34,610 nucleotides of DNA from Armatimonadota bacterium (GTDB lineage Bacteria; Armatimonadota; Fimbriimonadia; Fimbriimonadales; GBS-DC), in the NCBI GenBank assembly GCA_037444405.1, contig JBBIML010000029.1:1-34610 (forward strand). The letters are read 5' to 3'. Below are positions 6,001-9,000 of this stretch, piece by piece; positions within the stretch are counted from its first letter, which is position 1, and each line of letters opens with the position of its first letter. The position numbers were made by a program.

Positions 6001-9000
6001 GGGAATGTGCCTTACCTTCTTGCGCGATCATCTCTTCTTTGCGTCGGACGGTCTGACGGGTGCGGCGCCGCAGGACGCCTATGCGCGTTTTGACGAGCTG
6101 GCGGCGCAGGTGCCGGCGGGCAGTGAGGGGTTGCTGTTCACTCCGTGGCTGTATGGCGAGCGCACGCCAGTCGAAGACCATGCCATTCGGGGCGGGTTCC
6201 ATCATCTGTCGCTCCGGCATCAACGGGCGCACATGGTGCGGGCGGTGCTGGAGGGTGTCGCGCTGAACCTGCGCTGGCTGCTGCCCTATGTGGAGCGGTT
6301 CGCGGGTCGGCGGTTCGCGCAGATTCGGGCGATTGGTGGCGGTGCGCGATCCGCGCTCTGGTGCCAGATTCTGGCGGATGTGCTGAACCGCCCGATTGCG
6401 CAGATGGAGTTGCCGGTGGCGGCGCCGTTGCGGGGTGTGGGGCTTCTGTGTGCGCTGGAGCTGGGCTGGCTCACGCCTGATGAAGCGGCGCGATGCCTGC
6501 CCGTTCAGCAGCGGTTCCAGCCCGATGCGGAGCGCGCCCGCCTGTATGACGCGCTCTTCCGCGAGTTTCGCGCGCTCTATCGTGCGAATCGCCCCATCCA
6601 CGCCCGCCTGACCGCCCTCCTGCGGTGAGGGAATTCCTCCTCTTCTTCGGCGTAGCCTGGTAGTCCTCGCTCTGAGGGCACCCCCTCACCCGTGCCCTCT
6701 CCCCCTTCAGGGGGAGAGGGTTCTGGAGGTTTCGGGTTCAGACATCGTAGTACAGTGCGAACTCGTAGGGGTGCGGGCGCAGAAGGATCTGCTCCACCTC
6801 GCGTTTGCGCTTGTACTCGATGTAGGTCTCCAGCAGGTCGGGGGTGAACACGCCGCCTTTGAGCAGGAACTCGTGATCGCTCTCCAGCGCGTCGAGCGCT
6901 TCGGAGAGGCTGGCGGGCGTGGTCTTGATGCCGATGCGCTCCTCCGGCGGCAGCTCGTAGAGGTCTTTGTCGATGGGGTCGGGCGGCAGGATGCGGTTCT
7001 GGATGCCGTCCAGCCCCGCCATCAGCATCGCCGCGAACGCCAGATAGGGGTTGCAGGAGGGGTCGGGCGCACGGAACTCGATGCGACGCGCCTTCGGGCT
7101 GGGGGAATAGGTCGGGATACGGATGCACGCGCTGCGGTTGCGCTGGCTGTAGACCAGGTTGATGGGCGCCTCGTAGCCCGGCACCAGCCGCCGATAGGAG
7201 TTGGTGCTGGGCGCGGCGAACGCCAGCACCGCCGGCGCATGGTACAGGATGCCGCCGATATAGTAGAGCGCGGTCTCCGACAGCATCGCGTAGCCCCGCT
7301 CATCATAAAACAGGTTCTCGCCCGCCTTCCACAGGCTCTGGTGCGTGTGCATGCCGGAGCCGTTATCCTGAAACACGGGCTTGGGCATGAAGGTCACGGT
7401 GTAGCCGTTGCGAGCGGCGACATTTTTGACCACATATTTGTAGAGCATCACCTTGTCCGCCATGCGGGTGAGCGTGTCGTAGCGGATGTCGATCTCGGCT
7501 TGACCTGCGGCGCCGACCTCGTGATGCTGCACTTCGACCTCCACGCCGCACTCGATCAGGGTGAGCATCATCTCGGTGCGCAGGTCCTGCAGGGTGTCGG
7601 CGGGCGGCACGGGGAAGTAGCCCCCTTTGAGGCGCATCTTGTGCCCCAGGTTCGGCTTCTCCTCGCGACCCGTGTTCCACTCGGCTTCGTCCGAATCGAG
7701 GTAGTAGTAGCCGTAGTTGGGACCCTGCCCGTAGCGCACATCGTTGAAGATGTAGAACTCCACTTCGGGACCGAAGTAGGCGGTGTCGGCGATGCCTGAC
7801 GCGCGCAGGTACGCCTCCGCCTTGTACGCCACATAGCGCGGGTCGCGCGTGTACCGCTCGCGCGTGATGGGATCGACCACATCGCAGATGAAGCTCACGG
7901 TGGGCACCTCGGTGAACGGGTCCATAAACGCCGTTTCGGGGTCGGGCATCAGCAGCATGTCGGAGAGGTTGATAGTCTGAAAGCCGCGGATGGAGGAGCC
8001 ATCGAAACCGATGCCCTCCTCGAACAGTTCCTCGGTGAGCGCCTCGATGGGCATCGAGAAGTGATGCCACATACCGAACAGGTCGGTGAACTTGAGATCG
8101 ACGACACGCGCGTCATGCTCTCGCGCGAACTGAATCGCTTCCCTTGGACTCATAGTGACCTCCTGTTTTTGTTAGTGCTGGCACGCGATAGGCGTGCGAA
8201 AAGGCACTCTGCCGTCGTGCAGAGCGACCATCGAGGCGGCACCGTTGCCGACATAGGGGCGACGGAACAGGGCTAACAGCGGTCTGCATGCGCCGTTGCC
8301 ATGCAGTGAGGAGCCACTGCTCGCGTCCAATCCAATTATACCCCACCCCGCTGACAAAAAAGTCAAGGGGACGGGAGGGTGTTCGAAAAATCATCTCTTG
8401 CGAGCCGCTTGAGCAGGGCGCGGGTACGGGCGCGGCGACCACGCCCGTACTTGACACGGGTACGGGCGCGGTTCCCGCGCCCTGTTTTCGAACACCCTCA
8501 GGGGACGGGGGGTGTTCGAAAAATCAGGCATGAGGGGGGTCGGCTGAAGCCGTTCCTGTGCAAACAAAGCCGACGCAGGTCGGCTGAAGTAGCCAGCGCA
8601 TCTTGCGCTTGAGTTTGGGCAGGATGCCCCAGCTACGGGGAGCCAGCGCAGGCGGGATTTGTTTGGGTAGGAACGGCTTCAGCCGTCTGGTTCAGGTAGT
8701 GAATTCCTGGGCAATCCCACCAAGGCAGGAATAACTATTGTAAGGTACGAAACAGCCTTCCATGCGATGCCGATGGAGCCTGCTGATGCTCTGGTTTTGC
8801 TGGGGGCTGGGGCTGACACAGCAGCCCAGCCTTCAGCAGGAAATTGATCAACTGCTGAGCGTCGAGTGGCTGAAGTATGGCTCCTGCGGGATTGTGGTTC
8901 GCGACCTGCGCACAGGCGAGACGCTCTATCAGCGCGAGGCGGAACGGTTGCTGATTCCCGCCTCCTGCACCAAGCTCATCACGACCGCCGCCGCGCTCCA

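Follow-up and report, generated by a model that had tools for sequence, protein, structure and literature searches.

A conserved glnA leader in one family of Armatimonadota carries two ANTAR-type hexaloop hairpins and is a candidate target of an ANTAR-domain response regulator

The DNA analysed here (the window) is a stretch of 34,610 nucleotides from the contig JBBIML010000029.1 of an Armatimonadota bacterium. At 6738..8153 on its minus strand lies glnA, recognised from the open reading frame and from Pfam matches as the gene for a type I glutamine synthetase of 471 aa with Gln-synt_N and Gln-synt_C domains (PF00120 at 5.8e-137; PF03951 also matched). The gene is monocistronic, with convergent and divergent genes as neighbours. 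In the organism we found neither an ammonium transporter nor a clear glutamate synthase. The ATG start codon of glnA, assigned from the reading frame and its translation, is at 8151..8153 (minus strand) and is preceded by a Shine-Dalgarno (SD) sequence, AGGAGG, at 8159..8164 of the same strand, which falls in invariant columns of the alignment. The leader comprises about 175 nt (about 8328-8154, minus strand) and lies 3' of a TATAAT sequence (8335..8340, minus strand), a -10 box conserved in the leaders of the family; judged by eye, its distance from the motif described below is constant in 18 of 20 aligned family leaders. The glnA transcript would, from the sequence, start near 8328. A -35-like hexamer, TTGACT, is found at 8366-8361 on the minus strand, and because the spacer between it and TATAAT is 20 nt in the window, a sigma-70 promoter scan called no promoter at this box.

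The first-pass annotation had described this leader as a branched, conserved 5' domain followed by a GCCUC stretch that pairs with the SD sequence. The existence of the structured leader was confirmed: R1, a covariance model built on the 5' domain (103 positions, 26 pairs), gave 80-111 bits for every one of the 21 family leaders that could be aligned. The domain is indeed conserved, but it is not a true multi-branch structure, as it consists of one long interrupted arm and a short hairpin. All of the following elements are on the minus strand, and loops are given in square brackets. The arm begins with P1 (8261..8327; 5' strand 8327-8312, 3' strand 8274-8261), a long interrupted helix with 82% of cells paired and compensatory changes in 11 of its 14 pairs. 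P1 encloses P2 (8284..8306), a hairpin tipped by GC[AACGGC]GC, whose hexaloop (8297-8292) is the first of two ANTAR-type hexaloops; this apex runs on into a 9-bp stem, in which 5 of 8 pairs are invariant and 2 of 8 covary. The two helices are separated by an internal loop. Its 5' strand, J1/2 (8307..8311), reads CCUCA in near-invariant columns and, extended by the bases that follow it (CCUCACUG), forms a complement to CAGGAGG in the ribosome-binding region, while its 3' strand, J2/1 (8275..8283), reads ACCGCUGUU here and is ACCUCC-like in most relatives, forming a second SD-complementary stretch. A linker of 10 nt, GCCCCUAUGU (8251..8260; 10-12 nt across the family according to the alignments, with invariant GCCC and UGU), leads to P3 (8237..8250), the hairpin CGGC[AACGGU]GCCG that carries the second ANTAR-type hexaloop (8246-8241). 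All 20 distinct rows of the alignment share the same P3 stem. The GCCUC of the first-pass annotation (8233..8237) shares its G with P3 and is complementary to GAGG(U/C).

The remainder of the leader is more variable. P4 (8203..8229) is a G+C-rich hairpin without a U-tract, predicted from the fold in 22 of 22 leaders with differing stem sequences; it was ruled out as a terminator, as a U-tract follows in none of 20 leaders, although in genus g1 P4 is followed by CCUUUUC. P5 (8181..8197), a second variable hairpin, is likewise predicted in 22 of 22 leaders, and its stems covary. Between P5 and the SD sequence there is an A/C-rich, G-poor spacer (8165..8180), unpaired in the predicted fold.

In the class sample, R1 matched 12 of 15 genomes of the family and none of 135 genomes of three other families. 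As had been claimed, the leader can be aligned across the family, in our hands in 21 of 23 loci (20 of 22 plus the locus of genome G015); the motif is absent from the glnA loci of genera g6 and g2. The pairing and covariation figures reported earlier were closely reproduced on re-alignment: in the model-fitted alignment A4, paired cells make up 88.0%, versus 26.9-53.3% when the alignment is slid, 13 pairs show double changes versus 2-7, and the covariation score is 0.272 versus 0.043-0.107. The covariation is confined to P1 and part of P2, and none of the 4 pairs of P3 varies. The absence of an Rfam match was also confirmed, as a search with 4227 models (Rfam 15) gave no match within 8154-8336 even at E<=10; the 12 weak matches at this threshold in 7900-8800 are all outside the leader. 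A search of metagenomes with GlnA retrieved 80 glnA loci, of which R1 matched one, from a close relative; because only this one bears the motif, the metagenomic loci add no diversity for examining P3 or the anti-SD pairing. Inspecting the remaining 79 loci for an upstream GC[RRNGNN]GC was uninformative. At least 120 matches to the P3 core pattern from unrelated phyla were rejected as chance matches, since R1 gave at most 28.3 bits on the 100 that were searched, versus 80-111 bits for true members.

The complementarity between GCCUC and the SD sequence proposed in the first-pass annotation is present and invariant in 20 of 21 leaders. However, the predicted pairing of the SD sequence (0.81 in native leaders) does not exceed chance (0.77 in dinucleotide-shuffled ones). 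The best duplex partner of the SD region was the CCUCACUG-side J1/2 strand in 10 of 20 leaders and the J2/1 strand in 9 of 20; GCCUC was the best partner in only one, the preferred strand lying elsewhere in the other 19. A function of GCCUC as anti-SD is not favoured by duplex or ensemble calculations and is not supported beyond chance. A search for terminator-like sites found none in 20 family glnA leaders and none in the leader of the window, and therefore the output of the glnA leader is probably translational. The SD sequence (8164-8159) lies 72 nt 3' of the end of P3 (8237), and the motif overlaps neither the ribosome-binding site nor the start codon.

ANTAR regulators are widespread. They are known to act by antitermination and, in actinobacteria, to repress through direct overlap with the start site. 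To our knowledge, few of their RNA targets have been characterised. The likeness of the glnA leader to such targets was overlooked in the first-pass annotation. Two stem-loops of at least 3 bp with six-nucleotide loops are present in 22 of 22 leaders, and both apical loops conform to R-A-N-G-N-N within GC/GC closing pairs. The G at loop position 4 is found in 22 of 22 leaders in P2 and in P3 alike. Position 1 is A in 17 of 22 (P2) and 19 of 22 (P3) and G in the remaining 5 and 3; position 2 is A in 22 of 22 (P2) and 21 of 22 (P3), so that the invariant A is not the one at position 1. Published ANTAR targets are described as dual hexaloop hairpins of at least 3 bp with A1 and G4, separated by linkers of 5-12 nt in the Enterococcus faecalis eut leaders and of 2-25 nt in the manual curation of actinobacterial hits (PMC3369931, PMC3369936, PMC8164766). 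According to the description of the EutV-RNA crystal structure, G4 makes the sole base-specific contact (PMC8934654), and EutV antitermination is reported to be abolished when the linker is lengthened. In the glnA leaders the base of the P1-P2 arm is 10-12 nt from P3, the two hexaloops are 50-55 nt apart, and P2 alone is separated from P3 by about 33 nt in the window, beyond the published linker ranges. An arm of about 23 bp, interrupted by a large internal loop, carries hairpin 1 at its tip, and unless this arm is bent the hexaloops may be too distant for one dimer.

Comparison with characterised systems reveals both shared and divergent features. As in the EutV/eut (E. faecalis), NasR/nasF and AmiR/amiE leaders described by Ramesh et al. 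(2012, PMC3369931), there are two hexaloop stem-loops in which G4 is invariant, the first loop position is a purine, usually A, and the closing pairs are conserved; with arm 1 taken as a whole, the linker comes to 10-12 nt, the element is located 5' of a nitrogen-assimilation gene, and ANTAR regulators are encoded in the genome. Unlike the dual-hexaloop leaders in that description, hairpin 1 of glnA tips a long interrupted arm that covaries, hairpin 2 has no terminator as a competitor, the A at loop position 2 is invariant, and much sequence is conserved outside the loops, exceeding the needs of a dual hairpin. The hairpins also nearly match the site CAGGCAANGGCGCC from the nitrogen-fixation leaders of Geobacter sulfurreducens, to which GnfR, when GnfK was present, bound in gel-shift assays (Ueki and Lovley 2010, PMC2995071). 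P2 contains GGCAACGGCGC, which matches the core of this site, and GGC[AANGGC]GCC there is near-identical to GGC[AACGGC]GC and CGGC[AACGGU]GCCG here. GnfR is an orphan REC-ANTAR protein with nitrogen-gene targets, but its sites as described lie 5' of terminators, overlap them and act by antitermination, the organisms are unrelated, and glnA is not known to be among the GnfR-regulated leaders (PMC2995071). Control of glutamine synthetase genes by ANTAR proteins has been published (PMC3369936, PMC6316151), e.g. NitR of the glnA/GOGAT cluster of Clostridium saccharobutylicum is an ANTAR protein that induces glutamine synthetase on nitrogen limitation, although, unlike the output predicted here, its action is described in the review as transcription antitermination (PMC6316151). 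Terminator-free ANTAR RNAs under translational control are described in actinobacteria (Mehta et al., PMC8164766; bioRxiv 10.1101/660928). There, however, repression comes from a dual hairpin overlapping the ribosome-binding site or start codon (PMC8164766), whereas the SD sequence of glnA lies about 70 nt downstream, behind two more hairpins. With no terminator and an SD sequence about 70 nt past hairpin 2, the leader does not directly fit either of the known ANTAR outputs. On balance we incline, with some reserve, to the reading that the leader serves in cis as the target of a response regulator with an ANTAR domain, of the GnfR, NitR or EutV kind; rather than a new metabolite sensor, it is probably a protein-operated switch of a known type in a version specific to this family.

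The small hairpin is not restricted to this motif. Among 14 glnA leaders that lack the motif, 10 (from 7 of 10 genera) contain GC[RRNGNN]GC within 200 nt, versus a background of 19% (binomial 3e-5). Family specificity as claimed earlier thus applies to the whole 103-nt domain and not to its core hairpin. In 8 of these 10 leaders the hairpin, as judged by eye, overlaps the 5' strand of an intrinsic terminator or sits 4-5 nt upstream of it; the terminator-like hairpin of leader L161 is weak, and leader L160 required a finder in addition to inspection. Rfam searches of seven sister-family glnA leaders returned no relevant family. Similarly, the claim of a single copy in the genome holds for the full model, which hits only 8229-8330, but not for the small hairpin, which recurs in the leaders of two other genes. 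Upstream of citrate synthase (gltA) this hairpin lies between the -10 box and the SD sequence in 19 of 24 family loci, and upstream of methylmalonyl-CoA mutase it abuts the SD sequence in all 10 loci from genera g1, g4 and g5, where its stem shows compensatory changes. The single hairpins of the mutase leaders resemble the actinobacterial ANTAR arrangement as described in PMC8164766. Of the leads in the genome-wide hairpin lists only gltA and the mutase were followed, chosen because their hairpins lie between the -10 box and the SD sequence. As the small hairpin occurs in two other leaders, a trans-acting binder fits better than a metabolite aptamer. The upstream regions of the P-II genes contained no leader and no hairpin; both genes are inside operons.

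The binder might also be something other than an ANTAR protein, such as a small RNA or a different protein that binds hairpins, or the leader might have a constitutive role, e.g. as a 5' stabiliser against RNases or a ribosome standby platform, with the ANTAR likeness coincidental. We regard this as rather unlikely. The signature is low in information, with 5653 occurrences of GC[RRNGNN]GC in the genome, and genome-wide searches for ANTAR sites were too noisy in this genome of 62.5% G+C: a dual-hairpin descriptor gave 710 hits versus 509 in the reversed genome and was not enriched, hairpin pairs within 90 nt numbered 81, mostly in coding sequence, and 782 single hairpins were hit in non-coding DNA after crude masking. 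The geometry deviates from the canonical motif, P1 begins a few bases from the putative 5' end, as mRNA-stabilising hairpins do, and the ANTAR model assigns no function to P4, P5 or the A/C-rich spacer. Nevertheless, the universal G4 in both loops, combined with variable positions 3, 5 and 6, is a pattern of specific recognition, the identity to the GnfR site and the link to a nitrogen gene are hard to put down to coincidence, and the conservation of marginal 3-bp hairpins in the gltA leaders argues for a stabilising binder.

Less probable still is a metabolite riboswitch responding to glutamine, 2-oxoglutarate or another nitrogen-status signal, in which the junction nucleotides would form the pocket and the ligand would shift the SD sequence between free and sequestered states. 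It would account for the large conserved domain, in which about 38 of 103 columns are invariant, many of them in the junctions and outside the loops (CCUCACUG, ACC, GCCC, UGUC), and for the occurrence of the full domain once per genome, 5' of a metabolic gene. Alternative pairings exist as well, namely a local hairpin at the 5' end in 16 of 21 leaders (by eye) and a GNRA-type hairpin, UGUCG[GCAA]CGACG, in place of P3. With no Rfam match such a riboswitch would be new; the glutamine riboswitch (glnA RNA motif) and other Rfam cis-regulators share the link to nitrogen genes, but their architecture is unrelated. Against this reading, invariance is greatest in the apical loops and the pairs that close them, as is usual for protein sites and not for pockets, the 10-12-nt hairpin stands alone in two unrelated leaders whose length leaves no room for an aptamer, the glnA leaders of the sister families have only the small hairpin and a terminator, and the fold of the single leader sequence is not unusually stable (z = -1.24). 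The first-pass annotation had left the choice between a riboswitch and a protein-controlled switch; a regulatory structured leader stands, and within it the protein option gains at the expense of the riboswitch, because the most invariant elements are ANTAR-type apical hexaloop hairpins that recur in two other leaders. Until protein binding has been tested, it would be wrong to list the element among candidate new riboswitch classes.

That the GGC-N6-GCC repeats serve a transcription factor as DNA operators, with an incidental RNA structure, seems to us very improbable: the elements are short inverted repeats and in the gltA and mutase leaders lie just 3' of the -10 box, a frequent repressor position, but the core R-R-N-G-N-N is asymmetric and therefore strand-specific, the glnA elements lie about 30-95 nt into the transcript, compensatory changes in 11 P1 pairs are explained only by selection on RNA pairing, and the sister-family element overlaps terminator stems.

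Analysis of possible ANTAR partners revealed matches to PF03861 in three genes of the genome, all encoding REC+ANTAR proteins. Matches are present in 41 of 41 genomes of the order, and their mere presence is therefore not discriminating. A REC-ANTAR paralog encoded on contig C15 retains the residues aligned to the Tyr, Met, Asn and Arg of the EutV RNA contact. Another REC-ANTAR paralog, P0002, has orthologs with 73-100% identity in every motif-bearing genus and none above 59% elsewhere, and its co-occurrence with the motif probably reflects one evolutionary event. In P0002, Glu replaces the EutV Met, which has been described as a hydrophobic plug at the RNA contact (PMC8934654). A scan of seven open reading frames in the 16-kb stretch around P0002 found no histidine kinase and no nitrogen gene.

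If the leader is an ANTAR target, a phosphorylated dimeric regulator, presumably present under nitrogen limitation, would dock on both hexaloops and lock P2 and P3. In the unbound RNA, C/U-rich strands that lie beside the hairpins or share bases with them, namely CCUCACUG 5' of P2, ACCUCC 3' of P2 and GCCUC after P3, could pair with ACAGGAGG and hide the ribosome-binding site; in the bound RNA these strands would be held or occluded. The terminator would have been lost in the leader of this family, leaving translation initiation as the output, and, by analogy with antitermination, the direction of control predicted by such a scheme is activation at the level of translation. A more elaborate scenario can be put forward only tentatively. 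One clade may have rebuilt an ANTAR antitermination switch as a terminator-free translational switch, in which the first hexaloop was moved onto a long, bent, covarying arm and CCUCACUG and ACCUCC serve as anti-SDs that reach the ribosome-binding site about 140 nt away by a pseudoknot-like contact. The switch would be read by the clade-specific P0002 with its altered RNA-contact loop, which would have arisen together with the RNA, and glutamine synthetase, citrate synthase and methylmalonyl-CoA mutase would make up a small carbon/nitrogen regulon.

If the ANTAR reading is correct, a leader that kept two ANTAR hexaloops, lost its terminator and gained a conserved scaffold of 100 nt would illustrate how switches of this kind come to change their output. 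It would also be a compact model for asking how a single dimer reads two hexaloops that lie far apart. The presence of the hairpin at the citrate synthase and methylmalonyl-CoA mutase genes also suggests a carbon/nitrogen regulon in this uncultured lineage.

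A search with GlnA across 41 related genomes retrieved 22 loci of the same family (GBS-DC), 20 of which could be aligned over the whole glnA leader; with the locus of G015, another genome of the family, the structured 5' domain is found in 21 of 23 loci. Alignment fails for the loci of genera g6 and g2, in keeping with the earlier remark that two genera lack the motif. A covariance model of the domain (R1; 103 positions, 26 pairs, hand-drawn structure) scored 80.0-111.2 bits on all 21 motif-bearing leaders of the family, and at best only 11.2 bits on 14 glnA leaders of other genera or families. 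It has a single match in the present genome (G000), at 8229-8330, and in a 151-genome sample of the class it detected 12 of 15 other genomes of the family and none of 135 genomes from three sister families; among metagenomic glnA loci, 1 of 80 matched. In an alignment fitted to the model, 88.0% of paired cells can pair versus 26.9-53.3% with slid partners, both-sided changes occur in 13 pairs versus 2-7, and the covariation score is 0.272 versus 0.043-0.107; these figures lean towards the structure because the alignment was fitted to it, and they agree with the pairing and covariation values reported earlier. Rfam 15 gave no match within the leader at E<=10. Model scores, distribution and pairing statistics support the claim of the first-pass annotation that the glnA leader carries a real, single-copy motif without an Rfam counterpart.

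The glnA gene (8153-6738, minus strand; 471 aa, Gln-synt_N and Gln-synt_C domains) is monocistronic, with an FGGY kinase gene convergent at its 3' end and a D-Ala-D-Ala carboxypeptidase gene diverging about 600 bp upstream. By eye, its TATAAT -10 box (8340-8335, minus) is conserved in 18 of 20 family leaders. A sigma-70 scan called no promoter at glnA, because the TTGACT hexamer (8366-8361, minus) lies 20 nt from the -10 box; the transcription start, which we infer near 8328, therefore rests on the conserved -10 box. About 175 untranslated nucleotides separate TATAAT from the Shine-Dalgarno (SD) sequence AGGAGG (8164-8159, minus), which is followed by ATG, and a terminator scan of this leader called none. 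All its elements lie on the minus strand. The long helix P1 (8327-8312 with 8274-8261) consists of three segments and shows compensatory changes in 11 of 14 pairs; inside it, an asymmetric internal loop, in which CCUCA faces ACC..., leads to the hairpin P2 (8306-8284), 5 of whose 8 pairs are invariant. A linker of 10-12 nt with invariant GCCC and UGU leads to the hairpin P3 (8250-8237), whose 4-bp stem never varies, so that covariation is uninformative there; covariation support is thus uneven across the helices. Directly 3' of P3 stands GCCUC (8237-8233), followed by two G+C-rich hairpins, P4 and P5, present in 22/22 leaders with differing sequences, and by an A/C-rich spacer of 16-20 nt before the SD. 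The single-sequence fold is of unremarkable stability (z = -1.24). The local hairpin at the 5' end, left open earlier, is possible in 16 of 21 leaders of the fitted alignment, judged by eye (as GAGC/GCUC, GCGC/GCGC or GGAG/CUCC), but impossible in 5, and therefore is no universal feature.

Analysis of the tips of P2 and P3 reveals a common element that had gone unmentioned, GC[R-A-N-G-N-N]GC, represented in the window by GC[AACGGC]GC (P2) and GGC[AACGGU]GCC (P3). Over 22 leaders, loop position 4 is always G in both hairpins, position 2 is A in all P2 and 21 P3 loops, and position 1 is A in 17 P2 and 19 P3 loops and G in the remainder; positions 3, 5 and 6 vary. RNA targets of ANTAR proteins are described as pairs of stem-loops, each with at least 3 bp and a hexaloop that has A at position 1 (A1) and G at position 4 (G4), joined by a linker of 5-12 nt (PMC3369931), for which a range of 2-25 nt is also given (PMC8164766). 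At the level of sequence, the pair in the glnA leader resembles this published signature. According to the account of the EutV-RNA crystal structure, a flipped-out G4 stacked on a tyrosine is the sole base-specific contact, A1 being thought structural in role (PMC8934654). A closer match than the general signature is the reported site of GnfR, an orphan response regulator of the REC-ANTAR type from Geobacter sulfurreducens. With its kinase GnfK present, GnfR binds RNA with CAGGCAANGGCGCC, i.e. GGC[AANGGC]GCC, in nitrogen-fixation gene leaders (PMC2995071). According to a commentary (PMC3369936), a prediction of 2012 already placed ANTAR targets before glutamine synthetase genes, and a review describes NitR, an ANTAR protein of Clostridium saccharobutylicum, as an inducer of GS/GOGAT genes (PMC6316151). 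With somewhat better than even confidence, we propose the glnA leader as a predicted ANTAR-protein target of unusual, terminator-free and scaffolded architecture.

The motif had been considered specific to its family, which holds for the full domain, but its core hairpin is shared: GC[RRNGNN]GC occurs within 200 nt of the start in 10 of the 14 motif-less glnA leaders (7 of 10 genera), against a background in G000 of 0.19 per 200 nt (binomial 3e-5, related leaders not being independent). Inspection by eye and with a simple finder shows the hairpin sharing bases with the 5' strand of a U-tailed terminator in leaders L024/L025, L029/L030, L158, L159 and L160, and lying 4-5 nt upstream of one in L022 and L028; in L161 a terminator-like hairpin with a weak U tail follows. 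A further hexaloop hairpin is often found 5-10 nt upstream. Antiterminators canonically have this layout. These canonical-looking sister leaders had no relevant Rfam match either, and the silence of Rfam is therefore no argument against the ANTAR reading. Terminator-like sites occur in none of 20 motif-bearing leaders, and thus the family motif looks like a derived form that kept the hairpins and lost the terminator. The glnA leaders L023-L028 of family f5 have a conserved hairpin CCCGUG-loop-CACGGG right after the -10 box, with a loop not always A1/G4, which may be the lineage-specific first hairpin of the f5 antiterminator.

Similar hairpins precede two other genes. The citrate synthase leader (contig C25 of G000, ~21040-21000, minus; L255/L256 and 18 other family loci among L257-L280) carries GGC[RRNGNN]GCC with a 2-6-bp stem and invariant G4 in 19 of 24 family loci. 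The hairpin stands 7-14 nt downstream of a GGTATNCT -10-like box where the box was found and, in most loci having it, 8-15 nt before the SD. The hairpin is absent from g5 (3 loci), g2 (1 locus) and the examined upstream stretches of five other-family leaders, in which start codons are mapped less exactly. The methylmalonyl-CoA mutase hairpin (contig C6 of G000, ~70030-70066, plus; L254/L286, also L287-L292, L297, L305 and L306) adjoins the SD in 10/10 loci of g1, g4 and g5, includes it in g1 (CCUCUGGC[GAAGAC]GCCAGGAGG), and shows compensatory stem changes (CUGGC/GCCAG versus UAGC/GCUA); it is found in 0/12 loci of g3, whose mutase leaders are very short. That a marginal 3-bp hairpin holds its position in three unrelated leaders argues for a trans-acting binder. 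EutV is reported to bind a lone hexaloop with about the same strength as either one of a pair (PMC8934654).

PF03861 matches three proteins in G000, all REC-ANTAR proteins of ~195 aa, and 1-3 proteins in each of the 41 genomes of the order, so that their presence is necessary but non-discriminating. Aligned to the RNA contacts of EutV (6WSH), the paralog on contig C15 keeps Tyr, Met, Asn and Arg, the C6 paralog has Phe, Arg, Asn and Asn, and the C9 paralog (P0002; C9:44605-45189, minus) has Phe, Glu, Ser and Gly. P0002 is confined to the four genera with the glnA motif, in all genomes of which its orthologs share 73-100% identity (21 full length; 2 fragments at 80-83%); the best matches elsewhere reach 46% in g2, 51% in g6 (the motif-less family genera) and at most 59% in other families. 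This co-occurrence, though striking, may be a single evolutionary event, since the four genera are mutual closest relatives by GlnA identity. P0002 is an orphan between NIF3-like and macro-domain genes, with no kinase gene nearby, and its divergent contact loop, with Glu for Met and Ser for Asn of EutV, argues against the canonical RNA-binding mode.

Two features fit the ANTAR reading poorly: the first hexaloop sits atop an arm of ~23 bp, and the P2-to-P3 spacing, counted from P2 alone, is ~33 nt in the window, while linker lengthening is reported to abolish EutV action. One dimer would read both loops only if the internal loop bent the arm back; otherwise two dimers would be required. Moreover, 38 of the 103 columns are invariant, more than a dual hairpin needs, and a genome-wide dual-hairpin descriptor was not enriched (710 matches versus 509 in the reversed genome). 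Another binder or a constitutive structural role is considered unlikely. That the leader is a riboswitch, one of the two options raised earlier beside a protein-controlled switch, appears more doubtful still: the structured leader stands, but its reading narrows towards a probable ANTAR-protein target and not a new riboswitch class.

Our results do not favor the proposed pairing of GCCUC with the SD. GCCUC is invariant in 20 of 21 leaders and complementary to GAGG(U/C), and RNAalifold draws the pairing, but folds, shuffles and duplexes do not single it out. When 20 full leaders are folded with a partition function, the mean SD pairing probability is 0.81, to which GCCUC contributes 0.13, the J2/1 strand of the internal loop 0.26 and its J1/2 strand 0.08; shuffling the upstream leader with its dinucleotides preserved gives 0.77, i.e. 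chance suffices for a C-rich leader to hide a G-rich SD. Duplex calculations pair the SD region most stably with CCUCACUG (J1/2 extended by the 5' base of P2) in 10 of 20 leaders, with the ACCUCC-like J2/1 in 9 and with GCCUC in a single one; the mean is -12.5 kcal/mol versus -10.3 for shuffled sequences, and just 5 of the 20 leaders reach or pass the 5% tail. If the output is sequestration of the SD, the strands on either side of P2 would be better candidates than GCCUC. The CUG of CCUCACUG also belongs to the P2 stem, which would mirror ANTAR logic, where one strand is common to the protein-bound hairpin and the helix that competes with it; lying inside P1, CCUCACUG or J2/1 could contact the SD only through a pseudoknot or after P1 opens.

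The nitrogen-assimilation gene set of G000 (98.9% complete) is unusual: the ammonium transporter family PF00909 has no match, versus matches in 14/14 control genomes, Glu_synthase has only two marginal ones (22.6-22.9 bits), and both P-II genes lie within operons, without leaders. Thus, regulation of nitrogen assimilation may act mainly at glnA, and a coupling of glnA to citrate synthase, supplier of 2-oxoglutarate, would make sense.

Repeats make up the intergenic DNA on the upstream side of the glnA promoter (8368-8690): two direct copies of GG(A/G)GGGTGTTCGAAAAATCA (8374-8393 and 8507-8526) lie on either side of a G+C-rich palindrome (8414-8484), and a 31-nt inverted repeat is also present (8541-8571 with 8655-8685). 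The GTTCGAAAA core has 59 copies across the genome, and the repeats are therefore a dispersed REP- or MITE-like family. An ORF at 3874-5016 (plus) matches a Mu-type phage portal protein (PF06074, 1.2e-67), so that a prophage, or what remains of a phage, lies within a few kb of glnA. The window also encodes a large protein (12233-14920, plus) of STAND-type signalling architecture, comprising an adenylate/guanylate cyclase domain, an AAA/NB-ARC ATPase and TPR repeats.
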